Source: an uncultured Gammaproteobacteria bacterium
GTDB taxonomy: Bacteria > Patescibacteriota > Microgenomatia > UBA10105 > UBA927
DNA: 64,000 nt
Assembly (NCBI GenBank): GCA_964527425.1
Contig: CAZGOA010000001.1
Location: 20,842-84,841 of the forward strand
Direction of reading: 5' to 3'
The position numbers were made by a program, and so were the translations under genes. This document shows positions 13,898 to 63,397 of the stretch, piece by piece. The notes under the pieces were generated by a model. It made no database searches and was not told the origin of the DNA. It saw only the letters and a program-made list of their open reading frames with translations. Position 1 is the stretch's first letter, and every line of letters begins with the position of its first letter.

Positions 13898-14122
13898 TTA
13901 TTGTTTTTTATTAATCAGTGACACTATTACTGATATAAACATAAAAAAAGCCCCATACATTACCAGCCGCTGTGCAGTAAAAAAAATCCATTGTGAGTAT
14001 AGGGGTATTGCAACAAAAAAACAGCACAAACCGGCTGCTACAAATAACCTTCTTCTGCCTAACCATAAAAGAAGAAATAAGACCATAACAAAAATAACAT
14101 CTTGAATCTTAATATCCATCAT
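13898..14122 (-). CDS. small hypothetical membrane protein (2 TM)
   Basis: 74-aa ORF with two hydrophobic segments between the epimerase and decarboxylase genes. No recognisable motif. Confidence 0.3.
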   Translation of the reverse strand: MMDIKIQDVIFVMVLFLLLWLGRRRLFVAAGLCCFFVAIPLYSQWIFFTAQRLVMYGAFFMFISVIVSLINKKQ

Positions 14123-47731: not shown

Positions 47732-48962
47732 GGATGTAGTATACTAAAATAGAAATAAACAAAAAAAGCGTTACTAATGCATTTGAAACGATTAGGGAAA
47801 AGAGTGTTGAGTGAAAAAGGAACATTCCTGCTATTTGAATACAAACTCCAATACATAATAACCTCCATACTCTTGTTCTATTTATAGCAAGGCACATCAT
47901 AGAAAGATAATTTATAGTTGTAATACATGCTAAAAATAATCCATATATTCCTAAATATTGTCCAGCATTAGCATAAGCACTACCAAATAATAATGCAGGA
48001 ATTACTGAAGATAACAATAAATAGATAACTGATATTCCTATACTTATACCTCCCACACCAAGTAGTCCGACTCGTATGATTGATGTATATTCTTTACCTG
48101 ATACTTTTCTCTCAGCTGCCATTGGAAACAACACAATAAGTAAGGCTGATGAAGCAAAAAATATAATTTTCCCAAATATATTGAGAGATGCATATATTCC
48201 AGCATCTTGTGCTTGAAAAAACATCTTTACTAACACTACATCAATGTTATAGAGCATAGTTATTGCAAGCGTTGTCATTAGTGTAGGAAAAGCAAATTGT
48301 ATAGCATCTTTTTTAAGGAGAGAATGATTTACCGGTTTTGCTTTTAGAACAAAACGTAAAGGAAACATTCCATATATTAGGGTAATAACATTACTAATAA
48401 TCATCCCCAATAAGGTAGTAGCTGCTCCAAAAGGCGCGAGTAAAAGACCTGTAATGAGCCGGGTTGCGATATTTATGATTTGATAAATGCTGGATGATAA
48501 AAACTTTTGATAACCATTGAGAATTCCATTGCCAGCGGTTATATAAAATGAAGATGCTACAATTCCAAATAGCCAAATAAAACTCATAAAATCTTGAATT
48601 CTTAGCATTTTTTGCAGAAACGGAATAAATGGAAGAAACAATAACCCACCGACTATACTACCTATGGTTAAATACTTTACTATACGCAGCAACAAACTTT
48701 TAGCTTGTCCTGTATTTCCTTTTGCTTTTATTTCTGAATAAAACTTTGTTAGTGATATTTGAACTACATTGGCTGGAACACTTAAAATGAATAAAAGTGA
48801 AAATAGTGCTGCAAATTCACCATATCGCTCTGGTCCCATAATTCTTCCAACAATAACATGGTATAAATATGCACCAATATTTACGACCATTGTACCGACA
48901 AACATTATTCCGCTGTTTATTAAGACTGTATTATTTGCAAGCAACAAGACATATTTTTTCAT
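47721..48962 (-). CDS. Wzx-type oligosaccharide/lipid-linked sugar flippase (Polysacc_synt, MOP superfamily)
   Basis: 'VGRIMGPERYGEFAALFSL' (RxLGxxxYG motif), about 12 TM helices, 413 aa. Confidence 0.7.
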   Translation of the reverse strand: MKKYVLLLANNTVLINSGIMFVGTMVVNIGAYLYHVIVGRIMGPERYGEFAALFSLLFILSVPANVVQISLTKFYSEIKAKGNTGQAKSLLLRIVKYLTIGSIVGGLLFLPFIPFLQKMLRIQDFMSFIWLFGIVASSFYITAGNGILNGYQKFLSSSIYQIINIATRLITGLLLAPFGAATTLLGMIISNVITLIYGMFPLRFVLKAKPVNHSLLKKDAIQFAFPTLMTTLAITMLYNIDVVLVKMFFQAQDAGIYASLNIFGKIIFFASSALLIVLFPMAAERKVSGKEYTSIIRVGLLGVGGISIGISVIYLLLSSVIPALLFGSAYANAGQYLGIYGLFLACITTINYLSMMCLAINRTRVWRLLCIGVCIQIAGMFLFHSTLFSLIVSNALVTLFLFISILVYYIHES

Positions 48963-49642
48963 ATAAATTTAAATTTAATAAGAGTCCAAACTGCCATAAT
49001 TCCATCTCTCCATGTTAATTTTTTTCCTTCTTCAAACTTTCTCCCAAAATACGATATTGGGACTTCATATATTTGATAGCCAGCTTTCAGTACTTTTGCT
49101 GTAAATTCTGGTTCAAAATCAAATCTGTTGCTTTGTAAGGTAAACGAATTAAGTACGCTTTTTCGAAATGCTTTGTACCCGGTTTCCATATCAGTAATAT
49201 TCGTGTTGTACAAAATGTTGGTTAAAAAGGTTACAAATTTGTTTCCTATTGTATAAAGATACATAGTAGATAAGTGTGATCCTAAAAACCTTGAACCATA
49301 TACCACTTGAACACGTTCATGAGTAAAAGGACTAATAAGTTGTTCATAGTCATTTGGTGTGTATTCAAAGTCAGCATCTTGAATAAGAATAATTTCACCT
49401 TTTGCATGTTTAAAACCTTCAATTAAGGCTGCACCTTTACCTCGGTTATATCGCTGCAAAATTACGTTATATTTATTTTTTACTTTTCTTAATAATTCTT
49501 GAGTACCATCGGTTGAACCATCATCAACAATAATAATTTCTTTTTTCCATCCTTTTATCTGCTGATTTTCCACTAATTTTAATAACTTAAGTATAGTATT
49601 CTTTTCGTTAAATACAGGAATGATAATTGATACAAGTTTCAT
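48959..49642 (-). CDS. GT2 polyprenyl-phosphate sugar synthase (DPM1/GtrB/CsbB-like)
   Basis: 'VSIIIPVFNEKNTI...IIIVDDGSTDGT...NRGKGAALIEGFKHAKGEIILIQDADFEYTP'. Confidence 0.75.
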   Translation of the reverse strand: MKLVSIIIPVFNEKNTILKLLKLVENQQIKGWKKEIIIVDDGSTDGTQELLRKVKNKYNVILQRYNRGKGAALIEGFKHAKGEIILIQDADFEYTPNDYEQLISPFTHERVQVVYGSRFLGSHLSTMYLYTIGNKFVTFLTNILYNTNITDMETGYKAFRKSVLNSFTLQSNRFDFEPEFTAKVLKAGYQIYEVPISYFGRKFEEGKKLTWRDGIMAVWTLIKFKFI

Positions 49643-49645
49643 ATG

Positions 49646-50656
49646 TTAAGATAAACATTTCTTATATATAGTTAGTGTTTCTTGTGCTGTTTTCTCCCAC
49701 GAAAACTGCCGGGCATACGACATTAATTCTTTTTGATTCCATTTTTTATGTACTGCTTCCTTAATACCATTAACAATACTGTTTACATTAAATGGATCAA
49801 CTAATACAGATGGACCTGCAATTTCTACTAAACTAGAACTTGAGGATACCACACAAGGAATTCCACAGGCCATAGCTTCTAATATGGGTAATCCAAACCC
49901 TTCTGCAATAGAAACTTGTACACATACAGTTGCTACACTATACACTAAAGGCAAATCCTCCTGAGGAACAAACCCCAGTTTAATAATGGTATTCTCAGCT
50001 TTGCATTCTTTAATAAGTGAGTTGATTATCTTCACTTCTTGTAATCCGTCATTGAGAAAAGCTTTACCAACCAGTACTAGTGGAATATCACTTTGAGAAA
50101 TTGCTTTAATTAGATTAGGAATATTCTTATTCCAATTAACGTCTCCAACATAAAGCAGGAATTTTTCAGGTAACGAATATTTATCACGAATAAATTTTTT
50201 TTTGTCGTTATCTGCTAGGATAAATTCTGCTCCAGGTGCTAAATAGCTGACAAATACTCTTGATTCTGGTACGTGTAGTGCTTGTACTATGTCTTTTTTT
50301 GATGCATATGAATCAGTAATAATCGCCGTTGCTTTCTGTAGAGTTTTCTTTTGAATGAACCATTTAATATTTCCACGCAGACCAACTGGGAAATGTTTTT
50401 TATAAACTATAGGAATTAAGTCATGTACAGTTACGATAAATGGCACATGGATGTTTCTGGGTAGTGTTAAAAAAAATGGATCAAAATAAGGGAAATGAAC
50501 TAGATCCACATTCGAGGGAATATCACCTTTAAAAGGTATCAGGATACATGTTTCAGAATATTTTTGTAATGATTCCAGTAATTGTTTAGTATAAGTTCCA
50601 GTTCCGCGACCTGCATGAGAAGAAGTTAATGGTGAAATATCTAAACCAATATTCAT
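49646..50656 (-). CDS. glycosyltransferase family 4
   Basis: 'AEGFGLPILEAMACGIPCVVSSSSSLVEIAG'. Confidence 0.8.
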   Translation of the reverse strand: MNIGLDISPLTSSHAGRGTGTYTKQLLESLQKYSETCILIPFKGDIPSNVDLVHFPYFDPFFLTLPRNIHVPFIVTVHDLIPIVYKKHFPVGLRGNIKWFIQKKTLQKATAIITDSYASKKDIVQALHVPESRVFVSYLAPGAEFILADNDKKKFIRDKYSLPEKFLLYVGDVNWNKNIPNLIKAISQSDIPLVLVGKAFLNDGLQEVKIINSLIKECKAENTIIKLGFVPQEDLPLVYSVATVCVQVSIAEGFGLPILEAMACGIPCVVSSSSSLVEIAGPSVLVDPFNVNSIVNGIKEAVHKKWNQKELMSYARQFSWEKTAQETLTIYKKCLS

Positions 50657-52272
50657 AATTTCCTGCTCCCAAGAGTAAATCGCTTAGGTCTAATTAATAC
50701 TGATAGCAACAAAAAACTCATAGCTGTAATAGAAATTATATTACTAATCATCCTTAATGGAGTATCTTTAAATACTGCAGTTATAGTATGCGCTCCTGGT
50801 GGGATCGTTACTTCAATAATTCCATCGTTGTTGTTAATAGGAATACTTTTGTTATCCGAGTATACATACCAACCTGGATAATATAGTCTGTTAATTAAAA
50901 CGGTGCTTTCTTTCTCGCCTTGTATGGTAAATCTGTCGGTTGTAGTCGTTGAAGATAAGGAAGTAACAACGCCGTCTCCCGATAGAATTGATATCCTAGA
51001 AGTGGGTCGTTCTTTTTTCCATGTTGTCCACTTAGTTGAGAAACTATTTCCCATAGAAGATGTACCATCAGTATAATTTTTTTCTGACGTATAATATTCA
51101 TCAGACCTTGGTTCATACAAAACCGGCTGTGAGTATGCAAATGTTAAGACGATACTAGCAAGTACAATAACCAATATCATCCATTTGCGCATATATTCAA
51201 AACTATACACAGCCAGAAATGGAATACTAATTACTATAAGTGATAGTAATCGCCAAGGATATTGGACTAGCTGAAGTGGCTTAAGGATAGTCCAAAGAGG
51301 AATACTTATCTCTAACAATAAGAAGAAAACTATTATGATTATTACAAGAAAAAAACGAACCAAATTAATGTATAGTGGATGTTTATTAATTTTTATAAAG
51401 GTGATAATAGTAATAAAAAATATTAATAGAGGAATTATTCCAATCTGCTGTGACATCTCAGTACCAGAAGCTCCAGGATTTGAAAATCCACTACCCCATG
51501 ATGGTATTAATAACTGAAAAAGTTGAGGAAAATGATCACTATAGGTAGAAGTATTTAAACCTACCATATACTTACTTTCAAACAAAGCTGGCAGCCAAAA
51601 ATATGCCGCTCCAAGAAACCCGAGTATATAGTGTATTATTGCAGTTTTGTTTGTTAGAAATATATAAACTGCTATGATCGGCAATGTAATCATTGCCATA
51701 ATATTGTGTGTTATACATAAAAGAAAAATAGATAAACCGAGTACTATTTTTTTGTTCCAGCTAACTGATGCTAATGCTAACATACACCATGCTATTCCCC
51801 ATATTTCACCGATTGATCCTCTAACTGCTATATCCACAAACCAATACGGTACAGTGGCAAATACTAGTGTTGCCCCTACTGCGATAAATAGTTTTGTAAA
51901 CTTTAGCATCAGGATATAGCAGCTTATGAGAGCAATAAGATAACCGATTACTAAGCTGAGTTTATAGCTATCAATGAGACTAAATCCTAATAAATGTATT
52001 ACTGAACCTACATAATTGGGAAATGGATAATGAAAAATAAATAGCGGAAGACCGTATCCACTGTTTAATCCTGGAGACCACCGAGGAAATAAGTGTCCAT
52101 CTTGTAACATCTTTGTAAATTCATAAAAGCGTATAATATGAAATTCACCGTCATGAGTAGGGATATATGATCGACCTGCATAGGGAATAGAAATAATCGC
52201 CCAAAAAGAAAAAATAATTCCTAGCCCAACCAAAAATGCAATATATTGATTCTTACCTTGAAAGGTATTCAT
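50653..52272 (-). CDS. GT-C-like membrane protein, 'THDGxxH...PRW' family, paralog 1
   Basis: 'PTHDGEFHIIRFYEFTKMLQDGHLFPRWSPGLNSGYGLP', 'VPYWFVDIAVRGSIGE', C-terminal 'YYPGWYVY' plus a terminal TM. Confidence 0.55.
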   Translation of the reverse strand: MNTFQGKNQYIAFLVGLGIIFSFWAIISIPYAGRSYIPTHDGEFHIIRFYEFTKMLQDGHLFPRWSPGLNSGYGLPLFIFHYPFPNYVGSVIHLLGFSLIDSYKLSLVIGYLIALISCYILMLKFTKLFIAVGATLVFATVPYWFVDIAVRGSIGEIWGIAWCMLALASVSWNKKIVLGLSIFLLCITHNIMAMITLPIIAVYIFLTNKTAIIHYILGFLGAAYFWLPALFESKYMVGLNTSTYSDHFPQLFQLLIPSWGSGFSNPGASGTEMSQQIGIIPLLIFFITIITFIKINKHPLYINLVRFFLVIIIIVFFLLLEISIPLWTILKPLQLVQYPWRLLSLIVISIPFLAVYSFEYMRKWMILVIVLASIVLTFAYSQPVLYEPRSDEYYTSEKNYTDGTSSMGNSFSTKWTTWKKERPTSRISILSGDGVVTSLSSTTTTDRFTIQGEKESTVLINRLYYPGWYVYSDNKSIPINNNDGIIEVTIPPGAHTITAVFKDTPLRMISNIISITAMSFLLLSVLIRPKRFTLGSRKL

Positions 52273-53417
52273 GCTCTCATTTCCTTCATATGTTTTCTAA
52301 AAAAATAATTCCAATTTTTATAAGTAAATAGTATAGCTACAGGAGTAATCATACTGATTACACGCAATATTGGACCATATCCTTCATAATACCCCATAAA
52401 TATATAAGGGCTATGCCTTAATATAAGTCCAAAACTAAATGCTATAGAATATTCATATAAAATTTTATATTCTTTGTACGGCAAAAAACTTAACATTGTT
52501 AAAAACCACACAGCGTACCACGGATACATCTCTTCCCTCAAGGGAGTTAATAAAAATGCAAAAAACATACAAAAAAAACCAATAAAAAATAATTGTTTCA
52601 TGTCTCTTTTTATAAAAAATATTGGAATCATTGCTACTGTTGCACCTTTCACAAAAACTGAAAGAAGCCATACCAATATTCCCATGAGTTTATAAATTTT
52701 CTTTTGTTCTTTAAAAATAAAAAATCCCCACACCGCAAACAGCATCATAGTAATATCGTTATGTCCACCTACAATAACTTCTACTAAAATTAAGGGATTA
52801 AATGCAAATACGCTTACTTGAAATACATTGTTCGTTTTTTTATAAAGTAAGAATATAAAAAGTAAGTAACAAATTGTAACGAGACCTTTAAATGAAATAA
52901 TAGTTAGCCAAACATTATTTAAGCCTAAGAAATGAGGTATAGCAGTAAGTAATATCCAGGTGGGTCCATATAACGCAACTTTATTCGCTGCTCTCGTATA
53001 AGCCAAAGCAGGTTCATTCGGAATATCTATAGGCATAGTTATCCATGGATTTTCTTTCCAAAAAAAAGTTACTTTTGCCGTCGCGATATAATTAAAAATG
53101 TCATAGGAAAATGCAGGAAAAGCGATTAACAAGAAAAAAACGACTATCAGTAATAACGTTCGTATCTCTTTAATACTTATGCGTTTAGTATACGAAAGAT
53201 AAAGAACTCTTAAGTAGAGTATAAACAACGAAATAATAATACTCACATAAATAATCCCAAACATAAAACGATTATTCTGAAGTAATGATTGCAACGTAGT
53301 CTGAAACGATTGGTATATTTGTCTATCAAGTAAGAATAGATTTAAATCTACAAAACAATACGAGAACACTATCAAAACTAATGAGGTAATAATGAATCCA
53401 ATCGACAATATCTTCAT
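52269..53417 (-). CDS. polytopic membrane protein (DUF2029/GT87-like candidate)
   Basis: 382 aa, about 10 TM helices, 'FNPLILVEVIVGGHNDITMMLFAVWG'. Confidence 0.4.
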   Translation of the reverse strand: MKILSIGFIITSLVLIVFSYCFVDLNLFLLDRQIYQSFQTTLQSLLQNNRFMFGIIYVSIIISLFILYLRVLYLSYTKRISIKEIRTLLLIVVFFLLIAFPAFSYDIFNYIATAKVTFFWKENPWITMPIDIPNEPALAYTRAANKVALYGPTWILLTAIPHFLGLNNVWLTIISFKGLVTICYLLFIFLLYKKTNNVFQVSVFAFNPLILVEVIVGGHNDITMMLFAVWGFFIFKEQKKIYKLMGILVWLLSVFVKGATVAMIPIFFIKRDMKQLFFIGFFCMFFAFLLTPLREEMYPWYAVWFLTMLSFLPYKEYKILYEYSIAFSFGLILRHSPYIFMGYYEGYGPILRVISMITPVAILFTYKNWNYFFRKHMKEMRA

Positions 53418-53420
53418 AAT

Positions 53421-54938
53421 CTATAAATAAGGTTCTTCATCTCTAAACGAAGAATTATCCGGTTCCAGTAATAAGTCATCTTCTGCTTTTTTAAGCTTTT
53501 CCTGTGACTTTAAACATTCGTCTAAACCATCTCCATCGACTGGTTTAGATGAAGTATTTATACAAAAATCTATAATATCAAGCCTCATCAATTCACTATT
53601 GTGTAGTAGAATGGCCTCATCAATTAATGTGTGCAAATTTAATACCGTCTCAGCTTCATGCTCTGGAGTCCACGTAACTTGTTGTGGTACTTTGCCTTTT
53701 AATTCTTCCAGAACCTTAATATGCGTCTTTAATGCCTCGGCATATAATGTAATTGTAGGCTTAATATCTTTTCCCTCACTGTATGCATTTAGAATAACCG
53801 CTTGAAGAGTGCCTATGTAATTTATAGAGGTTTTTAACCCTTCAGAGCCTAACAAATATTGCTTATACTCGAACAATGTTTTTGATTGAACAAGATACTT
53901 ATCTGCCTGTGCTAAATTAAATCTAAATCGGGCAATACTTCCCCAAACCCAATAGGATTGAAGAGTATCGATGAACAAAGATAATTTATAAAATTTACTT
54001 CCTGGCATTGCTGATGGATATGGCAGTACATAATCTGCCCTAACCTGACTTACAATACTTAATAAACAGAAACAGAAAACTAAAGCAGAAAGTACTGTTT
54101 TAATATGAAAGGATTTAAAATATGCAACTGGATAATGTAAAGCAGAGAAAAATGAAAAAATAAATCCTCTTATTCCGTCTAGTATTCCCTTATGTCGTAT
54201 ATACAAAGACAAAAAAACTTGCAGTGGTTTTATTATAGTATAAATGATAAATCGTAATATTCCGATTTGTTTTTCTGTGCGTATTTGCTTTGCTAATAGA
54301 CTGGTATATTTCGCTGCACCTTCAAAGTATCGTTTAAATGTTGGATTGGAATAATGATTTAAATCATGATGCAGCCAACCCACTCGACCTTCTATAATAA
54401 TTTGTTCATGAACACTTTTTGCAGGAACTGTTCCTTTATTTTTTTTGAATAGACGAATAACACCATCAGGATACATACCTGCATACGTCATTGGTTTTCC
54501 TAGAAAGAAATTTCTTCTCGGTAAATAATAGCCATTAACAGGTCCTTGTTCTGGTCTTTTTATGGAATCTCTAGATTCAACTAATAATTGATGACGCAAA
54601 AAAAGCTCACTAGTATTTGATTCTTGAGTGCTTTTTGCTAATACAACACGTTTAATCTCGTTTGATAAATTTTTAGTAACTTCTTCATCAGCATCTATTT
54701 GAAGTATCCATTCTCCAGAGCATGCTTCTACTGCTTTTTTCTTATTAATATGAAAGACTTTGGGATTATCTGTATTCAGGATAATTGCATTAAACTCTTT
54801 TGCAATAGACAGGGTGTTATCAGTCGAACCCCCATCAACTATTACAATTTCATCTGCCAATTCTTTAATTGATAACAAGCATCTCTTTAAATTTGACTCT
54901 TCATTATATACTGCTAATGCTACAGATAAATGCTTCAT
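53421..54938 (-). CDS. GT2 glycosyltransferase with ~250-aa C-terminal extension (TM segments plus acidic tail)
   Basis: 'LSVALAVYNEESNLKRCL...IVIVDGGSTDNT', 'LQIDADEEV'; the C-terminus ends 'DDLLLEPDNSSFRDEEPYL'. Confidence 0.7.
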   Translation of the reverse strand: MKHLSVALAVYNEESNLKRCLLSIKELADEIVIVDGGSTDNTLSIAKEFNAIILNTDNPKVFHINKKKAVEACSGEWILQIDADEEVTKNLSNEIKRVVLAKSTQESNTSELFLRHQLLVESRDSIKRPEQGPVNGYYLPRRNFFLGKPMTYAGMYPDGVIRLFKKNKGTVPAKSVHEQIIIEGRVGWLHHDLNHYSNPTFKRYFEGAAKYTSLLAKQIRTEKQIGILRFIIYTIIKPLQVFLSLYIRHKGILDGIRGFIFSFFSALHYPVAYFKSFHIKTVLSALVFCFCLLSIVSQVRADYVLPYPSAMPGSKFYKLSLFIDTLQSYWVWGSIARFRFNLAQADKYLVQSKTLFEYKQYLLGSEGLKTSINYIGTLQAVILNAYSEGKDIKPTITLYAEALKTHIKVLEELKGKVPQQVTWTPEHEAETVLNLHTLIDEAILLHNSELMRLDIIDFCINTSSKPVDGDGLDECLKSQEKLKKAEDDLLLEPDNSSFRDEEPYL

Positions 54939-54939
54939 A

Positions 54940-56589
54940 CTATTTTTTTAATAATCGTTTTTTGATAAAGGGAACACTTACCAATAAAACTAATCCAAAC
55001 ATACCAACTAAAGACATACTATTAGCAACACTTCTTAATTTTGTATCTGTATAAATAATTTCAATATCATGCTCACCAGGTTCTAACCAGAATGTCATTC
55101 TTCCTCTCCAATTAGGATCCTGAAATTCAATTGGTATTTGAGTTCCATTATCTATAATAATCCACCCTGGAAAATAAAGTGTATTTTCAACAAATCTAGT
55201 TCGTTCAATAACGTGTATATTGTATGTTCTCTTTGTAGAATTTCTGAAAAGCATTTCAATCGTCGCATTTCCATCTATTATCTGTAATGGTGCGATTGCT
55301 TCTGATTCCATAAAACGCACAGACCAAATAGGACTACTTTCTCCAGTATCAGTTGTTCCATGATAAATATTTGTAAAAAAAGAATCATCGTATAGTCGAT
55401 ATTCTTTTGGTTTCCACATTTGATACGTTGTAATGATCAACATAATAATAGTAAATACTAGTACTAATTGTTGCTTTTTTTCTGAAATGAATGAACATGC
55501 AAATCCACCTATTGCTGATGTTACGAAAACGGTAATAGTTAAAAGTCGCCAGGGAAACTGAAATTTTTGAAGGATTGTTACCGTATTCCAAACAGGAATA
55601 GACCATTCAGTCATAAGAAATAATGATCCAGCAAAAACTCCTAACATTGCAAAACCAAATATTCTTTTTTTCATTTTTTTTGTTGTGATGACGATGTACA
55701 TAGTACTTACTACGAACATCCATTGAATTATTCCTACCTCTTTTGAAAATTGAGCTCCCCCTCCATAATTCCAGGGTGAATATATAAACGATAACGGATT
55801 AACCATTCGGGTTATCACCTCGCCCTGAGTGACAATATCTCTAAGCGTATACTTACCTTCCAAAAAAGCAGGCATTAAGAAAAATGAAGACAAAAGCACA
55901 CCCAATACAGTTCCTATACCTATATAGAGACTACTTTTATACCGATGTTTAGTTTCAAAAAAAACTAAATATATAGAATATAGGAAACCGATAGGAATCA
56001 TCATCAGACTAACAGCATTATGAGAAAGAAGTAATCCTGCAACTGAAAGAGCAAGTAGACTTATCCAAATATGTTTTTTAGAATTTTTTATTAACCCATC
56101 AAGAGCAAACAATATTAATGGAATAAACACAAAAGCTACATGTTCTCCTATTGCTCCTCTAACAGTTAAATCCACGAATCGATACGGAGCAAAAGTGTAC
56201 AAAAAACCTGCAATCAAACCAGCAGTAGTTCCCCATCTGCCTTTTGCCCAATAATACATACTAAATCCACTTAACAAATAGCTTACTGCAAACACTAATT
56301 TTGTACTGCTAAGTATGGAAAATCCTAAAACATGAAACAATGAAGCAACATAAGAAGGTAAGGGATATAAAAACATTACTACAGGATGGCCAAATCCCCA
56401 ATTTAAATTACCAGCCCATCTTGGTACTATATTTCCTTCACTTAAAGACTGATAAAAATTAGCAATCCGAACTACATGATCTTGCCCATCATGAGTAACG
56501 GGCAATCCTGGAACAAGCAAATGCGCTATAGGTAATAGTAATAGCAACAATAATAATACTGGTATATATTTCATTACTTTACCATCCAT
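54940..56589 (-). CDS. GT-C-like membrane protein, 'THDGxxH...PRW' family, paralog 2
   Basis: 'PVTHDGQDHVVRIANFYQSLSEGNIVPRWAGNLNWGFGHP', 'APYRFVDLTVRGAIGE', C-terminal 'LYFPGWIIIDNG...EFQDPNWRG' plus a terminal TM. Confidence 0.55.
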   Translation of the reverse strand: MDGKVMKYIPVLLLLLLLLPIAHLLVPGLPVTHDGQDHVVRIANFYQSLSEGNIVPRWAGNLNWGFGHPVVMFLYPLPSYVASLFHVLGFSILSSTKLVFAVSYLLSGFSMYYWAKGRWGTTAGLIAGFLYTFAPYRFVDLTVRGAIGEHVAFVFIPLILFALDGLIKNSKKHIWISLLALSVAGLLLSHNAVSLMMIPIGFLYSIYLVFFETKHRYKSSLYIGIGTVLGVLLSSFFLMPAFLEGKYTLRDIVTQGEVITRMVNPLSFIYSPWNYGGGAQFSKEVGIIQWMFVVSTMYIVITTKKMKKRIFGFAMLGVFAGSLFLMTEWSIPVWNTVTILQKFQFPWRLLTITVFVTSAIGGFACSFISEKKQQLVLVFTIIMLIITTYQMWKPKEYRLYDDSFFTNIYHGTTDTGESSPIWSVRFMESEAIAPLQIIDGNATIEMLFRNSTKRTYNIHVIERTRFVENTLYFPGWIIIDNGTQIPIEFQDPNWRGRMTFWLEPGEHDIEIIYTDTKLRSVANSMSLVGMFGLVLLVSVPFIKKRLLKK

Positions 56590-57013
56590 ATTCTGAAAAG
56601 ATTATCTGTTTATTTACACAGTCAATAGCGTATTTAATATAAGTTATTGTGTTAGATGGAAGAGAATTTAATTGAAAAAACTGCAAATCATCACATTTGT
56701 TAGGTTCTGCATTAATGATTTCTCCTTTCCACTTTAAGCATCTAAAGAAAAAATCTACTCGCTCGTCATCTTTTTTTCTATGCATTACGTGTACTAACTG
56801 TAAATCTTCAGGCTGTATATGAAGGCCAATTTCTTCCTTAATTTCTCTGCAGGTGCCTTTCCTGATAGGTTCTCCTTGTTCCATATGACCTGCAGGAACA
56901 CTATATTTTCCATCTTCATATCCTGTTTGAAATCGTCGAGAAAGCAAAATAGTATTATTGACTATGTGTAATAAATATCCGGATATAATAACTTTATGAC
57001 GATTTACATGCAT
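56579..57013 (-). CDS. NUDIX hydrolase
   Basis: Nudix box 'GHMEQGEPIRKGTCREIKEEIGL' (GX5EX7REUXEEXGU). Confidence 0.8.
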   Translation of the reverse strand: MHVNRHKVIISGYLLHIVNNTILLSRRFQTGYEDGKYSVPAGHMEQGEPIRKGTCREIKEEIGLHIQPEDLQLVHVMHRKKDDERVDFFFRCLKWKGEIINAEPNKCDDLQFFQLNSLPSNTITYIKYAIDCVNKQIIFSEYGW

Positions 57014-57019
57014 ATCGTT

Positions 57020-58645
57020 TTAGTGAGAAATAAGCATTGCAACTGTACCATCTAAATAATAAACAGTTTTTAATGTTCCTTCATTCATTTCTATAGGTGC
57101 ACCTAAATAAAGCGTCTTTTTATCTCTTTTTTCTTTATCCCACTGGAGAGTCCTGAACTCAAATTTATCAAACTTATTAAAACGCTCCGCAAAACTTCCT
57201 GAAACTGTTCCACCTTCTTCTAGATACTTTTTTGGATCATATTTTAGATAAAATAAGAAGAACATGTGTGGTTGTTCAAGTTTTGTAGAAACAACTATTT
57301 TGTCATAATCATCATAACGCTCCATGACAAAAGGAATAGCCTCTTTGTATCCGTATTGCCAAAAATTTGAAAATTCTTTATTCTGATGAACAAAATACAT
57401 CACTAGATAATAGGAAACATTAAATAGATAACTTCCTATAAATACTGCGAGAACAAAAGCTGTAACATATTTTCGAAAGGTACTTATATATACCAGAAAG
57501 TGCAAGATACCCAATCCAATTACTATTTGAAAGGTAGGCAAAAACACTAACGTTCTTATAGCATGAGGCAATTCTGTAGTAGGAGATGCCGCAATAGGAG
57601 CTATTAACATCCAGGCAAGTACTAATTTACCAGCTTGTCTTCCGTATCTTATTAAAAAAAATAATCCGATAAATAAAAATGGTAACTCGATATGATATAA
57701 CAATCCCATTCCAGGGGCATGATGACGAGGATTATCTCCAGTTAAGAACAACCAATTTAATGAAAAACTAGATAAATATCCTGAAAGCAATGTCTGTGCG
57801 AAAACAATTCTACGATTATCTAAAATTTTACCAAGTAAATTATTTGTAGTCTGATTTCTTTCCAGTTTAATTACTGATCGTTCTAATAATCTCGTTTGAT
57901 CAGCAAGAGCACTGGTTCCTCGAAGTCTTGTTAGTGTAGATGAATCTGTTAATACAGGAATTAATGGTCCTATTGTTAACAAACCAACGACAGTTGCTAT
58001 TAATACTGACTTCCATTTTTTTATTACCATATTAAAAAACACACAACCCAATACTATTACTAATAGTGGAGAAAAAATTCTCTGGCTGTGATAGGCATAT
58101 ATTGAAAGACTAAATAAAAATGCTGATAACGAAAAAAATATTCCTTTCTTTAAACCCCATAAAAAACTTACTACTGCCCAAATAGTTACAGTAAGCCCTA
58201 TTCCTGCCTCAAATGCCATACGCGAAAATTGTAAATGCCACGGGGATATTGCAAGTAGCAATGAAACAATAAATGGTAAATACTGAAATTTAGTGCTCTT
58301 TGAAAAATAGCTAACAAGTTCTTTCGTAAGAAAATACGTTCCAATTACTGCTAATACACCCATGACGACAGCAGGTAATCGAACAGACCAAATATCTAAT
58401 CCAAACATCCACATACTAGGAACCGTTAAATACATATATAACGGTGGTTTATAATCATCATAAGAGCGAAGTGAAAGTGGAAACCAATTACCATATTCAT
58501 CTCTTCCAGTTTTCAGTATCGAATAGGCATTATACCCTAAAGCAGCTTCATCCCAATTAGGTCCGGGGGGAACGATCCCAAGATTCCATAATCTTAAAAT
58601 TGTAGCGAGTAAAATAATAAAACCTAATACAATATAATTCTTCAT
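57020..58645 (-). CDS. PMT_2/ArnT-family GT-C glycosyltransferase (GT39/GT83-like), tandem paralog A
   Basis: 'LRLWNLGIVPPGPNWDEAALGYNAYSI...RLPAVVMGVLAV'; C-terminal soluble domain. Confidence 0.7.
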   Translation of the reverse strand: MKNYIVLGFIILLATILRLWNLGIVPPGPNWDEAALGYNAYSILKTGRDEYGNWFPLSLRSYDDYKPPLYMYLTVPSMWMFGLDIWSVRLPAVVMGVLAVIGTYFLTKELVSYFSKSTKFQYLPFIVSLLLAISPWHLQFSRMAFEAGIGLTVTIWAVVSFLWGLKKGIFFSLSAFLFSLSIYAYHSQRIFSPLLVIVLGCVFFNMVIKKWKSVLIATVVGLLTIGPLIPVLTDSSTLTRLRGTSALADQTRLLERSVIKLERNQTTNNLLGKILDNRRIVFAQTLLSGYLSSFSLNWLFLTGDNPRHHAPGMGLLYHIELPFLFIGLFFLIRYGRQAGKLVLAWMLIAPIAASPTTELPHAIRTLVFLPTFQIVIGLGILHFLVYISTFRKYVTAFVLAVFIGSYLFNVSYYLVMYFVHQNKEFSNFWQYGYKEAIPFVMERYDDYDKIVVSTKLEQPHMFFLFYLKYDPKKYLEEGGTVSGSFAERFNKFDKFEFRTLQWDKEKRDKKTLYLGAPIEMNEGTLKTVYYLDGTVAMLISH

Positions 58646-58648
58646 ATA

Positions 58649-60343
58649 TTATTCAAACACTGTTAACACTTCTGTTCCATTTAATAATGTAATATGTTTG
58701 ATCACTGTGGCATCCATTGGTTTTAAATGAGGTGGCAGCACATACAAAACACGTCCTTCTAATACTGGCACTTCACCATCTACAAATGTATATTTTCCAA
58801 AACCTTTTACTTTATAAAATCCTGCCGCATCAAAGAAAGATATTTTTGACTCCCAAAATTCCTGTGGTGAATACTTGCCATAAAATAATGCATACATATA
58901 TGGTCTACCGATTGTCTCTGAAACAACTATATGATCATATCTATCTTTCAATGATTCTGTAACTTCCAGGGCCTGCTTGTATCCATATTGCCATTCACCA
59001 GAGAATTCATACGGATAATGAGCATAATAATTATGAAGATAGAAAACTATAAGTGCTGCATACATTAATACAAGATTCAGACCATAGAAATATTTAACAC
59101 TCTTTCTTTTTAAGATGTCCCATACAGAAATAATACCTACACCAATAGCTATATGCCATGTTGGAAGTGTATTCAATATTCGTAATGCATGCGGAGTTTC
59201 TCTAGCAACACCAGCTGGTACGATAGCTAATAATAACCATCCCAATAAGAGTATACCTATTTTTACATTCATTGAAAAAATCACATACCATCCAATCGCC
59301 AAAAATACAACTTCTATGATGTAGAATTGACCAGTATCCTGAATCGAAAATTTTGGATTACCGTCTCCTTTAATAAATAGAAATGATGGATCAAAATGAT
59401 CTAAATAGTGTTTCAAATACGAAATACCATACCCTACTCTTCTATTATTAAGTACGTTTGCCCACCAACTGTTTCCGGCATGCTCTATCCTGGCATTTGC
59501 TGTAGTTACAATAAGTGGATCAGAAAAAATATTTACCTCTTTAAAACGAAGTCTTGCCTCGGGCGATAATAAATGTGGTAACAAAGGCAACATAAATATA
59601 CTTGCAATAAAAATACTTACCACTAATCTCATAACTGTAATGTTCATCGAAGTATTTAGTGATTTTGATTTACTTTTAAAAACCGATTTACGTATCGCCG
59701 AAAAAAACATCTGAAGCTCTTTACCATATGTAAACCACAGCAGAAGTAATGCAAAAAAAGGTAGAAAATACCGAGCACTATTAAATGTATACATAGCGGC
59801 CACAAATGGAAGCCACATCAGTAACTGTAATTTTGGTTTATTCTTTGAACTAAGGATGATCAATACACCCAAAACAACAAAAAAAAGCGCTATAACAGCT
59901 TCAAAACCCGCCCTTGATAGATTAATATGCCAGGGTGATACAGCTAACACTGCTGCAGATAATAAAGCAAATCTATGAGGAAACTTATATGAACTGAACA
60001 GTACCATAACCAATGCGTACGTCAATAAAACTGTAAGAGTACTTACTATCACTACTGGTAAACGTACAGATAATTCATTAAGTCCCAATAAACCTACAAA
60101 AGGAGCAGTTAGATAGATAGAAACTGGTGGTTTATAGTCACCATAAGCAATAAATGTATCTAGTGGTAAAAACCTTCCATGTTCATCTTTTCCAGTATTC
60201 CAAATGCTCCAAGCATTATAACCAATAGAAACCTCATCCCATGTCAATGCTGGCGGGATATCTGTAATTTTATAAAAACGTAATAAAAAAGCGACACAGA
60301 TTATTATTATGAGTAGAAACCTTGTTTTTGATAAATCTTTCAT
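58649..60343 (-). CDS. PMT_2/ArnT-family GT-C glycosyltransferase, tandem paralog B
   Basis: 'LRFYKITDIPPALTWDEVSIGYNAWSI...RLPVVIVSTLTV'. Confidence 0.7.
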   Translation of the reverse strand: MKDLSKTRFLLIIIICVAFLLRFYKITDIPPALTWDEVSIGYNAWSIWNTGKDEHGRFLPLDTFIAYGDYKPPVSIYLTAPFVGLLGLNELSVRLPVVIVSTLTVLLTYALVMVLFSSYKFPHRFALLSAAVLAVSPWHINLSRAGFEAVIALFFVVLGVLIILSSKNKPKLQLLMWLPFVAAMYTFNSARYFLPFFALLLLWFTYGKELQMFFSAIRKSVFKSKSKSLNTSMNITVMRLVVSIFIASIFMLPLLPHLLSPEARLRFKEVNIFSDPLIVTTANARIEHAGNSWWANVLNNRRVGYGISYLKHYLDHFDPSFLFIKGDGNPKFSIQDTGQFYIIEVVFLAIGWYVIFSMNVKIGILLLGWLLLAIVPAGVARETPHALRILNTLPTWHIAIGVGIISVWDILKRKSVKYFYGLNLVLMYAALIVFYLHNYYAHYPYEFSGEWQYGYKQALEVTESLKDRYDHIVVSETIGRPYMYALFYGKYSPQEFWESKISFFDAAGFYKVKGFGKYTFVDGEVPVLEGRVLYVLPPHLKPMDATVIKHITLLNGTEVLTVFE

Positions 60344-61662
60344 GATATTTGATCAGAACGTATTATCTGTTCTTCATAATGAAATAACACACCAAGAATA
60401 AAAATTGTCGATAAAAACGCAATATGACTATTATTAAAATACCTACTGAAATACCAAATAATAAAAAGAAACACACCGTAGGATAAGAAGAGTTTAGAAA
60501 TTGATGGTTTTTTTCGTATCCAGAGTAGTAATAAGCCTAATACGGGTAATCCCAGACCTAACTGAAATATTGTAAACGGAAAGTAGTCTTTAATGTTGCC
60601 TATAAATCCGTGTTCAAACAGTATCATACTAAAACCATATCCAGAAACAGGATATCCTGTTTCTCCACCAGCACTCAAGTACAAAATCACACTATTAATA
60701 AAAGCTTGAGCATCCCATAGTAAAAAAGGCAACATTATTACTACTGCAGTACTCACGGCGATACATACATAAAAAACAAATTGTATTGTTCTGCTATTAT
60801 GAAACTTTAACCTTTTTATTAAAAGTTTTTTATTAGAGTAATGAGGAATTCCTAAAGCCAACCAAACATAGTAAATCCAAAATGGAAAAGCAAACCAAAG
60901 TGTCTGTTTTGACATCAAACCCAAACCGATTGATATTGCTGATAATACAATTCTTTTATTGTGTAATAAATAAACTGCATAAACTAACCACAATAAAGCA
61001 AATGTATCACTTCTTCCTTCTATAAAATAATGAGTAACTGCTGGAGACAGTGCTACTAGAATAATAGATATCTCTTTTAACACTGGATCTTTAAACCACC
61101 TCCATAAAACTACAATAATTCCAGTTAAAGCTATGAGCGATACTAATCTCACATCAAAGAATCCCAATGTTCGATTAGCTATCCAATAAACAGGAAATGG
61201 AAATAATAGATACCACGGAGGCATTACAAAATGGTATAACGCAGGATTTACTGCATCTTTACCTAATTCTGAGTATCTAAATAATTCAACAGGTGTATTA
61301 AAATAGGTTTCTTTATAGGGATTTTTACTTTGATGCAGATAACGCATAGCTGCTTCAAGCTGAAGTACAATGTCATGAGTACCCCATTGCGGTGCAATTT
61401 TATGCCGATCAATAATTGCAGTGTACGTAGTTCCTCCTATCACTATACTTAATACGATAATTAATAATACAAAGGATATTCGTCTATTCCACATACCAAA
61501 AGTACGTGGGTAAATATCAATGAATACTTTTCCAATTAAAGTAAAAAAAACTATGCCAAATAATGTGTATGGAGTTGTTTCAACAGGCCATATTCTAAAG
61601 TGCATAATCACAGGTATAGATAATGCAAAAAGTAGAATTGCCGGTATTGCAGAAAACGTCAT
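60340..61662 (-). CDS. polytopic membrane protein (GT-C-like candidate, family unassigned)
   Basis: 440 aa, about 11 TM helices, 'GRSDTFALLW...GLMSKQTLWFAFPFW'. Confidence 0.4.
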   Translation of the reverse strand: MTFSAIPAILLFALSIPVIMHFRIWPVETTPYTLFGIVFFTLIGKVFIDIYPRTFGMWNRRISFVLLIIVLSIVIGGTTYTAIIDRHKIAPQWGTHDIVLQLEAAMRYLHQSKNPYKETYFNTPVELFRYSELGKDAVNPALYHFVMPPWYLLFPFPVYWIANRTLGFFDVRLVSLIALTGIIVVLWRWFKDPVLKEISIILVALSPAVTHYFIEGRSDTFALLWLVYAVYLLHNKRIVLSAISIGLGLMSKQTLWFAFPFWIYYVWLALGIPHYSNKKLLIKRLKFHNSRTIQFVFYVCIAVSTAVVIMLPFLLWDAQAFINSVILYLSAGGETGYPVSGYGFSMILFEHGFIGNIKDYFPFTIFQLGLGLPVLGLLLLWIRKKPSISKLFLSYGVFLFIIWYFSRYFNNSHIAFLSTIFILGVLFHYEEQIIRSDQIS

Positions 61663-61680
61663 AGGTGTATTGTACTAAAA

Positions 61681-61709
61681 TTGAACAGCATACATGAAAG
61701 AGATACTAT
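61681..61709 (+). promoter_or_regulatory. candidate sigma70-like promoter for the + strand gene at 61724
   Basis: TTGAAC (61681-61686), a 17-nt spacer, TACTAT (61704-61709); AGGA about 9 nt before the ATG. Lies in a 61-bp divergent intergenic region. Confidence 0.3.
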
Positions 61710-61723
61710 AGAATAGGATTCTC

Positions 61724-63397
61724 ATGAAATCATTATATTTACTTTTTTTTATTATCATACTCTCTCTTCTGCCTTTTGTAAGCATTTTTACCACAAATCA
61801 ACTACCTCATACGAGTGATGGTGGAGTTCAAATACCGCGTATGGCAGCATTCTACACAGCGCTCAAAGATGGACATATTCCTGTTAGATGGGCAGGCGAT
61901 CTCAATTATGGATACGGATTGCCCCTATTTAATTTTATCTATCACACTCCTTTTTTTATTTCTTCATTTCTAATTTGGCTGGGAATCGGGTTAATAGATT
62001 CCTTTAAATTACTTTTACTTATCAGCTTTCTTCTTTCTGGTATATTTATGTTTCTTTTCTCTTCTGTTTTTTTCAAAGATACAAAAACTGCATTGTTTGT
62101 AACGATGCTCTATCAATTTGCACCATATAGATTAGTAGAGATATTAACCAGAGGAAGCATTGGAGGTATATATGCGTATACATTTTTACCACTCATGTTG
62201 TGGTGTATTGTATTAGTCTGGAATAAAGCAACTATTTATCGAATATTGGGTATTATAATAGCAGGTGGTTTGCTTATTCTTTCACACAACGCTTTAGCAC
62301 TATTGTTCTTTTTTTGTGTAGTGCTGTTTATATTATTAATGGGACCAAATAAACCATCTAAGTATTATTCTTTGTTCGGAGTATTGGGTAGCTTGGGTTT
62401 ATCTTCATATTATTGGATTCCTGCACTTTTTGAACACAAATACACCTATGGTGATTTATTTATGAAAGATTTATATCTTTCACATTTTCCTGAAATAGTT
62501 AAATTTTTTATTCCAAATCTTATCAATGCTCAAAATCTTCGAGTTGCTGAAATAAATATACACATAGGAATAATACATACAGTTGTGTTTATAATTGCGT
62601 GCCTCGTATTGATAACAACAAAACAAATGTTATCTCTACGAAATTTTATTAAGGAACCTCGCAATAGACTATTGGTTTATTCAATAAGTATATTTTTTTT
62701 GAGTATATTCTTTATGTCACGATTTTCAGTATTATTCTGGCAACATATTTCGTTTCTAAGACAATTTCAATTTCCATGGCGATTTCTTGCGCTCACTGTA
62801 TTTTCAACTTCACTCATGGGCTCGTTTGTCATGAGTATTCGTTTATTTAGACAACGCTATATTTTTGTTCTTTTATTACTTTTAACAATCGTTCCAACGC
62901 TCTATTATTGGCGTCCACCGCAAGGATACACCTATGGTGCAACTGACGAAAAATTTTGGAACTATCCACTAAATACTACCTATTTCGGTGAAACAGATGT
63001 AATTTGGTCAGCTGGTCCTGCAACATCATACCCGCCTTCTCGTATTCAAATAGTAGATGGAAACGCCCAAATCAGTAACTTTTCAAAAAAAACACATCAA
63101 CAATTTTTTACTGTAGAAGCAATAATTCCTTCAACTATCGTTAGCAACACACAATACTTTCCAGGATGGAAAGTATATGTAGACGATCAACTTGTTCCCA
63201 TAGAATTTCAAGATCAGAATTGGAGAGGACTTATTACCTTTGCAGTTCCACAAGGTATTCATCAAGTTAAGATACTATTTAAAGAAAGTAAAATTAGAAT
63301 CCTTGCTGATTGCATTACGCTTGGAACAATAGTCATTATGGGAATCTCACTTCTTGCGTCTACTCGATTAAAACGTCTCACGAGGAAAAATGTATGA
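61724..63397 (+). CDS. GT-C-like membrane protein, 'THDGxxH...PRW' family, paralog 3
   Basis: 'PHTSDGGVQIPRMAAFYTALKDGHIPVRWAGDLNYGYGLP', 'APYRLVEILTRGSIGG', C-terminal 'QYFPGWKVYVDDQLVPIEFQDQNWRG' plus a terminal TM. Confidence 0.55.
   Translation: MKSLYLLFFIIILSLLPFVSIFTTNQLPHTSDGGVQIPRMAAFYTALKDGHIPVRWAGDLNYGYGLPLFNFIYHTPFFISSFLIWLGIGLIDSFKLLLLISFLLSGIFMFLFSSVFFKDTKTALFVTMLYQFAPYRLVEILTRGSIGGIYAYTFLPLMLWCIVLVWNKATIYRILGIIIAGGLLILSHNALALLFFFCVVLFILLMGPNKPSKYYSLFGVLGSLGLSSYYWIPALFEHKYTYGDLFMKDLYLSHFPEIVKFFIPNLINAQNLRVAEINIHIGIIHTVVFIIACLVLITTKQMLSLRNFIKEPRNRLLVYSISIFFLSIFFMSRFSVLFWQHISFLRQFQFPWRFLALTVFSTSLMGSFVMSIRLFRQRYIFVLLLLLTIVPTLYYWRPPQGYTYGATDEKFWNYPLNTTYFGETDVIWSAGPATSYPPSRIQIVDGNAQISNFSKKTHQQFFTVEAIIPSTIVSNTQYFPGWKVYVDDQLVPIEFQDQNWRGLITFAVPQGIHQVKILFKESKIRILADCITLGTIVIMGISLLASTRLKRLTRKNV

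Follow-up and report, generated by a model that had tools for sequence, protein, structure and literature searches.

Three paralogous membrane proteins in a glycan-biosynthesis island

The window analyzed in this work is a whole 64-kb stretch of contig CAZGOA010000001.1 (GenBank assembly GCA_964527425.1), in which three open reading frames (ORFs), hereafter A (50653..52272, minus strand), B (54940..56589, minus strand) and C (61724..63397, plus strand), encode polytopic membrane proteins of 539, 549 and 557 amino acids (aa), respectively. We consider it likely that these proteins are three anciently diverged short (~540-aa) glycosyltransferases (GTs) of the GT-C superfamily, of the YfhO/PTPS_related type, which operate within a conserved cell-envelope glycosylation operon. 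An earlier interpretation made from the letters alone (the sequence-only reading) had placed the three genes at exactly these coordinates, stop codons included, and they were all recovered in the ORF listing; the public gene calls for B start five codons later, giving a protein of 544 aa. C is transcribed divergently from the rest of the cluster.

In full-length BLASTP comparisons, A and B displayed 29% identity (E 2e-60), A and C 31% (E 1e-64), and B and C 33% (E 9e-85). Such similarity is far above chance and the paralogs are real, in agreement with the initial proposal of three proteins related along their whole length. A full-length family hidden Markov model (HMM) run against all window ORFs matched only A, B and C, and thus revealed no further paralogs in the window. 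The three-way alignment showed shared motifs in the first extracellular loop (EL1), namely T-[HS]-D-G-x2-[HQ]-x2-R, [PV]RW and LN-x-G-[YF]-G-x-P, as well as [AV]PY[RW]x-V-[DE]..RG[SA]IG, [ST]HN and Y-[YF]-P-G-W elsewhere in the sequences. EL1 of B carries them as T32-H-D34-G..H38..R41, P56-R-W and L62-N..G..G..P69. The blocks quoted in the sequence-only reading are therefore present in the alignment, but two of their features are not common to all copies: 'QDxNWRG' occurs only in B and C, while A, the most divergent copy, has a four-residue deletion there and lacks this insert in its beta-module; and C has Ser and Gln in place of the two His residues of the THDG..H loop, its EL1 motif reading T-S-D-G..Q..R.

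Predicted fold and candidate active site

The AlphaFold2 (AF2) model of B, built on a 56-sequence alignment (A, B and C plus 53 homologs from databases), had a mean pLDDT of 91.9 and a pTM of 0.92. In this model, the first transmembrane (TM) helix (TM1, residues 5-25) is followed by a short strand and the loop with T32-H-D34-G, then by helix 35-50 and the loop with P56-R-W and L62-N..G..G..P69. Eleven more membrane helices extend to residue 391, and after a linker, partly of low confidence, come an eight-strand beta-sandwich (residues 435-513) and the last TM helix (residues 517-548). The C-terminal beta-module with a TM anchor, recognized earlier by eye, is reproduced by the model, and the module of B taken in isolation was also modeled confidently (pLDDT 94). 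For the topology, the AF2 helices were combined with the positive-inside rule; Lys and Arg abound in the short cytoplasmic loops, which are almost devoid of acidic residues, and both N- and C-termini are predicted to be inside. In B, 12 TM helices are followed by an extracellular domain and then by one more TM helix, an order that agrees with the topology of YfhO in a shortened version.

A Foldseek search of the PDB with the model of B retrieved exclusively GT-C enzymes among its top 20 matches (probability 0.99-1.0). AftD ranked first (E 7.6e-6), ahead of STT3 from human and yeast, AglB from archaea, ArnT, AftA, ALG12, AftB, DPY19 and PMT. With 12-13 predicted TM helices, B falls within the range of 8-13 characteristic of polytopic GT-C proteins, and its N-terminal TM module resembles that of the solved GT-C enzymes. 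Judging by the model, A, B and C possess the GT-C fold, and their previous description as GT-C-like is borne out by the matches to AftD, STT3/AglB, ArnT and AftA. A profile of A, B and C compared with PDB sequences gave only noise (eIF3c, BHRF1).

Residue conservation was assessed in 165 family sequences (106 of B-type, 46 of A-type and 13 of C-type) from 80 related loci. These were the best 80 of 197 relatives obtained by a scan of one genome per GTDB species, in which the best match was 55% identical, so that the species of the window is absent from the representatives; the homolog counts per 80 loci given below refer to these loci. In the numbering of B, at least 95% conservation was displayed by D34, R41, R57, L62, G65, G67, P69, P135, Y136, R144, G145, E149, H190, N191, P240, E244, F262, G286, W334, Q344, P346, W347, R348, T412, P474, W476 and G496. 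Twenty-six of these 27 positions were checked and all lie in predicted extracytoplasmic loops; the 27th, F262, is located within the outside loop 239-286. In the N-terminal THDG..H..R stretch only D34 and R41 reached this level of conservation, with neither H33 nor H38 among the listed positions, and D34 is invariant in the 56-sequence alignment.

In the AF2 model, D34 directly precedes helix 35-50, which is the first helix past TM1. The GT-C(A) enzymes carry a catalytically essential Asp at the tip of juxtamembrane helix 1 (JM1; PMC12041299), and because of its position at the tip of the first juxtamembrane helix D34 matches this rule, providing the acidic residue expected there. Both its location in the model and its conservation indicate that D34 is likely the catalytic Asp. 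The candidate active site, as suggested by conservation, may comprise D34, R41, R57, R144, E149, H190, N191, E244, W347 and R348; in the 2018 study of YfhO the catalytic residues were not predictable (PMC5836110). Regarding the invariant Asp, His and Arg which had been proposed to form a catalytic or metal site, Asp and Arg are indeed conserved in at least 95% of the sequences, the former being the likely catalytic residue, while His is variable; a His/Asp metal site is not supported because His is not conserved in the C orthogroup.

Family placement and distribution

At the Pfam gathering cutoffs (28.5 bits for YfhO, PF09586; 26.4 bits for PTPS_related, PF10131), only B was recognized: its residues 96-400 matched positions 92-394 of the YfhO profile with 32.5 bits. 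The YfhO match of A was confined to its C-terminal beta-module, aligned with the very end of the profile (positions 763-823 of 835; 16.8 bits, E 0.002), and C gave PTPS_related at 10.5 bits, below the cutoff, with no YfhO match. No NCBIfam model matched A, B or C. The affiliation is better visible at the level of the family. When the 56 aligned members were scanned singly against Pfam (E<1e-3), 30 matched PTPS_related (best 3.8e-16) and 22 matched YfhO (best 1.2e-11), while five matched PMT_2 and two, weakly, STT3. A large protein database contained 1753 homologs of B. Most public orthologs have a precomputed PF10131 tag, and some members of the family are named '6-pyruvoyl-tetrahydropterin synthase-related protein' or 'YfhO family protein' by NCBI. 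Except for three near-identical sequences, the top 120 homologs of B are 49-64% identical to it; these 120 originate from Woese-, Gottesman- and Levyibacteria and unclassified Patescibacteria and bear precomputed PF10131 and/or PF09586 tags.

The family is very large, since its profile, run with HMMER against 1.84 billion representatives (50% clustering), matched 18,871 of them at E<=1e-3, 13,406 at E<=1e-10 and 6,187 at E<=1e-30. Some of the representatives contain two to five tandem profile matches, e.g., P0135 (1116 aa), P0143 (1093 aa), P0158 (1670 aa) and P0145 (3329 aa); such proteins may be genuine products of fusion between neighboring paralogs, or else the gene calls were merged.

Full-length relatives outside Patescibacteria were revealed by tblastn against plasmids: the 'YfhO family protein' of Lactiplantibacillus plantarum (23% identity, 94% coverage) and others in Sphingobium (E 3e-19), Roseomonas, Monoglobus and Aeromonas. 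The Sphingobium homolog matches PF10131 above the cutoff (34.7 bits), and homologs of the L. plantarum protein bear a mixture of PF10131, PF09586 and PF20176 tags, one of them, in Vagococcus, being named PTPS-related. In hhalign, the alignment of the Patescibacteria proteins matched that of the Firmicutes group (YfhO/PTPS-related/DUF6541) across 507 columns that reach from TM1 to the C-terminal TM helix, with a probability of 100% and E 1.1e-52. In this comparison the Firmicutes consensus hD..FH..RI corresponds to THDGqDHVaRI of Patescibacteria, DLYVR.ALGE to DLyVRGAIGEH, sH to SHN, PMLEQ to PAfFEGKY, IQFPWRLL to QKFQFPWRLL, and YY.GY to YFPGW; G.GY is shared as well. The Patescibacteria alignment shows the features by which we delimit, as a working definition, the short YfhO/PTPS/DUF6541 clade: profile homology from end to end, D-x3-H-x2-R in EL1, QFPWR and a C-terminal beta-module with a TM helix.

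Since the motifs recur in the Firmicutes and Proteobacteria relatives, they are family-typical. The phyletic spread of the EL1 motif, which the sequence-only reading had proposed to check, includes Firmicutes (Lactiplantibacillus, Vagococcus) and Proteobacteria. The same reading named YfhO and PTPS-related proteins as candidate relatives, and this was the right neighborhood, as follows from the Pfam YfhO match of B, the 30 and 22 of 56 members recognized by the two models, and the hhalign result. Its suggestion of a group outside the named families did not hold: the family is already catalogued, its members being named by NCBI and split inconsistently among three Pfam entries (PF10131, PF09586 and PF20176). 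The short YfhO/PTPS_related clade is very large and experimentally uncharacterized, and A, B and C are ordinary members of it. This goes halfway to the case in which the earlier claim was to be abandoned, that of ordinary YfhO or PMT_2 members with an already characterized family motif, except that the motif, while family-typical, has never been characterized experimentally. PF10131 belongs to the GT-C clan of Pfam, with unknown function (PMC7801869). In every match examined, the start of its profile aligned at residue 74-76, past the first extracellular loop, and the profile probably does not cover the THDG motif. No literature tying Patescibacteria or the candidate phyla radiation (CPR) to GT-C or YfhO was found.

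As a side observation, the L. plantarum gene on plasmid pBM3 (L081 2791..4530) is annotated with a coding sequence (CDS) starting at 3268, while the ORF and the homology reach upstream to 2791. With the start at 3268 the deposited CDS is devoid of TM1 and the Asp-containing loop, and so the start annotation of this 'YfhO family protein' looks like a truncation. The full-length pBM3 ORF gave no Pfam or NCBIfam match at E<0.01 despite its YfhO name.

Orthologous groups and synteny

Each of the 165 sequences was assigned to A-, B- or C-type according to its highest BLAST score; the median margins lay at 170-240 bits. Two or more family members within 10 kb were present in 62 of the 80 loci; the arrangement 'B A' was found in 34 loci, and 'C(-) B A', as in the window, in seven. 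For the 46 A-type orthologs the median identity was 40% and the median lead over the other paralogs 195 bits, and in nine related loci C-type orthologs lie upstream of B on the opposite strand. Each orthogroup keeps its own synteny across Gottesman-, Levy- and Woesebacteria. Going by these comparisons, A, B and C are three old orthogroups, anciently diverged and syntenic in Microgenomates. As the arrangement is conserved in many loci, the copies are old and not a product of recent local expansion, contrary to the sequence-only reading, which suggested that the family may have expanded in this lineage.

The sensibly named records among the related loci belong to Gottesman-, Levy- or Woesebacteria or to generic Microgenomates or Patescibacteria. 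The title 'uncultured Gammaproteobacteria bacterium' stands on approximately half of the records of related genomes (e.g., L001, L004, L008 and L009); it is probably placeholder taxonomy, as gene content and the closest named relatives point to Microgenomates-type Patescibacteria. Based on its nearest relatives, the host genome of the window is likewise assigned to Microgenomates-type Patescibacteria.

Operon neighbors of the paralogs

The genes are arranged in the order C / GT87-like, two PMT_2-like, B, GT2-TM-DUF5667, MptA-like, A, GT4, DPMS-like GT2, flippase, DPMS-like GT2, the slash separating C from the divergently transcribed minus-strand genes. The first gene of the minus-strand operon, divergent from C, encodes a weakly GT87-like membrane protein of 440 aa (60340..61662; Pfam GT87 18.1 bits, E 0.0024; 35/80 loci). 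It is followed, upstream of B, by the PMT_2/GT39-like GT-C tandem paralogs of 564 aa (58649..60343, minus) and 541 aa (57020..58645, minus), which are 32% identical (BLASTP E 1e-65) and have homologs in 71/80 and 70/80 loci, the position upstream of the B ortholog being conserved in about 70 of them; the 564-aa protein matches Pfam PMT and PMT_2 and, weakly, an Agl23-like NCBIfam model. Between these genes and B lies a gene of a 144-aa NUDIX hydrolase (56579..57013, minus), which was also found in a near-identical Logan contig (L083) and in only one of the 80 related loci.

Directly downstream of B, with one base between the B stop codon and its start codon, is the gene of a 505-aa protein (53421..54938, minus) with an N-terminal GT2 domain, about two TM helices, a weak DUF5667 match and an acidic tail. 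It is the most conserved neighbor of the B orthogroup: a homolog is present in 75 of the 80 loci, and in 49 the ortholog is located at most 200 bp downstream of that of B, always on the same strand. The nearest solved or curated relatives of its GT2 domain are GmaR and SunS-type GT2 enzymes, which glycosylate proteins or peptides, and not CsbB/GtrB. For this reason the pair of B and the 505-aa protein was rejected as an analogue of yfhO-csbB, its GT2 domain matching GmaR/SunS rather than GtrB/DPMS. Between the 505-aa GT2 gene and A is the gene of a weakly MptA/GT87-like polytopic membrane protein (52269..53417, minus; 382 aa, ~8 TM helices) with a TIGR03459 match (25.9 bits, E 4e-6) and homologs in 44/80 loci, which is probably another GT-C enzyme.

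Directly downstream of A is the gene of a cytoplasmic GT4 glycosyltransferase of GT-B fold (49646..50656, minus; 336 aa; Glycos_transf_1 100.5 bits; 43/80 loci). It precedes two genes of DPMS-like GT2 proteins, both devoid of TM helices, with a gene of a flippase candidate between them. The first, DPMS/ArnC/GtrB/AglJ/PpgS-like (48959..49642, minus; 227 aa; 54/80 loci), matched in the PDB DPMS of Pyrococcus (5mlz, E 7.7e-19), ArnC (6e-15) and GtrB (9e-7), and in NCBIfam AglJ (129.9 bits) and PpgS (64.6 bits), and is a candidate for the maker of a lipid-linked donor. The second, DPMS/ArnC/PpgS-like (46925..47731, minus; 268 aa; 53/80 loci), matched Pyrococcus DPMS with E 3e-14; the NCBIfam models recognized in the two proteins include AglJ, PpgS, PgfS and dolichyl-phosphate hexose transferase. 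The flippase candidate is a MOP/Wzx-type protein of 413 aa and ~13 TM helices (47721..48962, minus; Polysacc_synt PF01943 42.7 bits; 34/80 loci). A search for a small GtrA-like flippase yielded a sole candidate, an unassignable 74-aa ORF with three TM helices (13898..14122, minus; ~3 hydrophobic segments), which has no family match; the 275-bp gap where it lies offers no other candidate gene.

The C-terminal module and other genes of the window

The best-ranked compact alignments of the beta-module were to accessory beta-sandwiches of glycoside hydrolases (E >= 0.06), and no carbohydrate-binding module (CBM) family could be assigned to it from the fold search. The sequence-only reading had extended this module to two larger minus-strand genes, those of a 654-aa membrane protein (20285..22249; weak MmpA-like NCBIfam match) and a 1019-aa membrane protein (23271..26330; sub-threshold GT-C_AftD match, 21.8 bits), and had called for their comparison with A, B and C. 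An HMM of the C-terminal part only, run with filters off against all window ORFs, gave for the 654-aa protein a weak but colinear match ending in the terminal TM helix (E 7e-4, 11 bits), and for the 1019-aa protein a non-significant one (E 0.097, 4 bits). Hence the link of the former to the module is weak and that of the latter unsupported, and neither BLASTP nor the full-length HMM detected a relation of the two proteins to A, B and C. They are mutually related in their TM regions (BLASTP 5e-8), and both finish with a [YH]-P-[GQ]-W stretch and a TM helix. At HMMER sensitivity, the 1019-aa, 654-aa, 620-aa, 570-aa and 568-aa membrane proteins were rejected as members of the family.

The whole window is one glycan-biosynthesis island, nearly all on the minus strand. 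It contains at least nine GT2 and at least eight GT4 genes, about 15 polytopic membrane proteins, several NAD-dependent epimerases/dehydratases, a CapD-like dehydratase, a UDP-GlcNAc 2-epimerase, two DegT-type aminotransferases, two hexapeptide acyltransferases, one methyltransferase and carbamoyltransferases. An aspartate/ornithine carbamoyltransferase-family gene (27436..28353, minus) and a NodU/CmcH-type carbamoyltransferase gene (35094..36878, minus) are located among glycosyltransferase genes, which hints at carbamoylated sugars. The 992-aa protein (6697..9675, minus; ~22 predicted TM segments) shows a sub-threshold Wzy_C match (24.8 bits vs the cutoff of 31.7), and the tandem paralogs of 570 and 568 aa (38449..40161 and 40158..41864, minus) are 47% identical (E 1e-166), with ~7 TM helices each and no Pfam match; no homologs of these three proteins were found in the 80 related loci.

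Proposed function and alternative interpretations

Taken together, the fold, the conserved extracytoplasmic residues and the operon context suggest that A, B and C transfer sugars from polyprenyl phosphate on the outer side of the membrane. The occurrence of DPMS-like GT2 proteins and a flippase in the operon supports a scheme of synthesis inside, flipping, and GT-C transfer outside. In such a scheme, the cytoplasmic DPMS/ArnC-like GT2 proteins (227 and 268 aa) would put a sugar on polyprenyl phosphate, and the lipid-linked sugar would be flipped, the MOP/Wzx-type protein being the candidate flippase. Each GT-C paralog would then take the donor in the outer leaflet and pass its sugar on to an acceptor outside the cytoplasm, which could be a glycopolymer of the wall or membrane or a protein at the cell surface. 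The invariant Asp at the tip of juxtamembrane helix 1 (D34 in B) would act as the catalytic residue, and R41, R57, R144/E149, H190/N191, E244 and Q344/W347/R348 could form an outward-facing site for the donor and its phosphate. The beta-sandwich, held above the active site by the last TM helix, may stand in for the much larger domain found outside the membrane in Bacillus YfhO and is probably in contact with the acceptor. Conservation of three orthogroups implies that the paralogs perform three different transfer steps, distinguished by acceptor or linkage.

Several facts weigh against this interpretation. The Foldseek TM-scores are modest (0.40-0.46) and the PDB contains no YfhO-family structure, because of which the roles of the residues are based on position and conservation and not on superposition. 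Against curated Pfam models the window proteins score only marginally (32.5 bits for B, a fragment for A and 10.5 bits for C), and the fold search with the beta-sandwich gave no significant match (best E 0.017). Pfam scans of the window ORFs revealed no GtrA/GtcA-family flippase, and as the 505-aa GT2 is GmaR/SunS-like, the analogy with YfhO-CsbB fails gene for gene.

Among the other explanations, the one that survives best, yet in our estimate is unlikely, regards the paralogs as oligosaccharyltransferases or ligases, which would transfer a glycan en bloc from a polyprenyl-diphosphate carrier to a protein or another acceptor. Indeed, the Foldseek scores of STT3 and AglB (E 5e-5 to 2e-4) are near that of AftD, two of the 56 members weakly match Pfam STT3, and Durairaj et al. 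placed YfhO-like families beside STT3/PglB in sequence space; moreover, a lipid-linked oligosaccharide could be assembled in this system, as the window encodes Wzx-type and weakly Wzy_C-like proteins and numerous cytoplasmic enzymes of GT2 and GT4 type. Nevertheless, the WWD[YWF]G motif is present in none of the 165 family sequences, and the extracellular part comprises ~125 residues instead of a large peptide-binding domain, so that neither the WWDYG motif nor the large C-terminal domain of GT66 (STT3/AglB/PglB) is found here. The conserved DPMS/ArnC/PpgS-like neighbors make monophosphate-linked single sugars, and the nearest named families, YfhO, AftD and PMT_2, use monophosphate donors as well.

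Somewhat less probable still is a novel GT-C family with a His/Asp/Arg metal site, recently expanded in this lineage. This was suggested by the window proteins being at or below the Pfam cutoffs and having no counterpart in NCBIfam, by the lack of any paper on the clade in Patescibacteria, and by the listing of PF10131 as a family of unknown function. It is largely refuted by the 18,871 representatives, already tagged and named, by the occurrence of the same motifs in Lactiplantibacillus, Vagococcus, Sphingobium, Roseomonas, Monoglobus and Aeromonas, by the age and synteny of the orthogroups, and by the variability of His in the C orthogroup.

We regard it as quite improbable that one or more of the paralogs are non-catalytic, serving as a scaffold, an acceptor-binding subunit or a flippase of the lipid-linked sugar. 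Rismondo et al. considered that YfhO might flip its own donor (PMC5836110), a review speculates that small GT-C enzymes need partner proteins (PMC8035078), and no GtrA-type flippase was found in the window; yet a MOP-type flippase candidate is present, and D34, R41, R57, R144, E149, H190, N191, E244, W347 and R348 are conserved in at least 95% of the sequences across all three orthogroups, as would be expected were one and the same active site retained in each. The assignment to pterin or queuosine pathways, for which only the Pfam/NCBI name '6-pyruvoyl-tetrahydropterin synthase-related' speaks, has practically no chance of being correct and is refuted by fold and context: true 6-pyruvoyl-tetrahydropterin synthase (PTPS) is a soluble T-fold enzyme of ~120-140 aa, whereas A, B and C are polytopic ~545-aa GT-C membrane proteins, PF10131 is in the GT-C clan of Pfam, and the window contains only glycan-synthesis genes, with no pterin-pathway genes in Pfam scans. 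The PTPS name of the family is a historical misnomer.

The proteins are not of a new kind. The practical gain is in annotation: A, B and C, like the ~19,000 representatives related to them, are best labeled short GT-C glycosyltransferases of YfhO type, neither pterin enzymes nor unknowns, and a set of candidate active-site residues is now offered where the 2018 work on YfhO (PMC5836110) could identify none. The three-paralog operon also represents a defined target for work on the surface and envelope of Patescibacteria, and by itself leaves the general knowledge of glycosyltransferases as it is. More tentatively, about seven GT-C enzymes of the operon might work as an assembly line outside the cytoplasm, which builds a lineage-specific envelope glycopolymer or a heavily glycosylated surface layer from polyprenyl-phosphate sugars; we see this as a possibility rather than as the expected outcome. 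If true, its logic would be like that of mycobacterial arabinogalactan and lipoarabinomannan assembly, realized in ultra-small Patescibacteria, with three short YfhO-like paralogs supplying three distinct linkages.

Comparison with known glycosyltransferase systems

YfhO is the extracellular GT-C enzyme of teichoic-acid glycosylation with N-acetylglucosamine (GlcNAc), where its partners are CsbB, a GT2 enzyme, and GtcA, a flippase (PMC5836110, PMC8035078). Its reference members are those of Bacillus subtilis and Staphylococcus aureus (GlcNAc on lipoteichoic acid) and of Listeria monocytogenes (GlcNAc on wall teichoic acid). A, B and C resemble YfhO in the GT-C fold, the cytoplasmic N-terminus, about 12 TM helices (13 in all in B. 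subtilis YfhO), an extracellular domain followed by one last TM helix, and the location in an operon with GT2 enzymes and a flippase. Unlike YfhO, they are ~300 residues shorter, with an extracellular segment of ~125 aa vs 389 aa in the B. subtilis protein. The partners differ as well: the DPMS-like GT2 proteins do not have the pair of C-terminal TM helices present in CsbB, and a search for GtcA/GtrA found none, so that the three-component set of a CsbB/GtrB-type GT2 with two C-terminal TM helices and a GtrA/GtcA flippase is not present here. To our knowledge, teichoic acids are not known in Patescibacteria.

PTPS_related (PF10131) is the commonest label on the orthologs and the NCBI name of those from Gottesman- and Levyibacteria. 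It carries no mechanism, since the family has no member of established function, and the window proteins score below its cutoff. A broader frame is provided by 'component 27' of Durairaj et al. 2023 (Nature 622:646), a large and mostly uncharacterized YfhO-like bacterial family of the GT-C superfamily (representative A0A7X7MB17). This component, likened to the window proteins by description only, lies in the sequence space between YfhO and STT3/PglB and has a median length of 665 aa vs ~545 aa here.

From AftD and the other solved GT-C(A) enzymes (STT3/AglB/PglB, ArnT, AftA and AftB), A, B and C differ in sequence, the identity being only 10-15% at a TM-score of ~0.45. Mycobacterial AftD, unlike them, is 1,400 aa long, contains carbohydrate-binding modules and has an acyl carrier protein bound to it. 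What they have in common with these enzymes is the N-terminal TM module, the juxtamembrane helices of EL1 and the Asp at the tip of JM1. The short Firmicutes group (the L. plantarum pBM3 protein, WP_237421452.1 region, and the PTPS-related protein of Vagococcus) is ~19-23% identical to the window proteins, carries inconsistent Pfam labels (PF10131, PF09586, PF20176 or none) and is encoded by single-copy, plasmid-borne genes, vs the three syntenic paralogs described here; at 520-600 aa, it belongs to the same length class as A, B and C.

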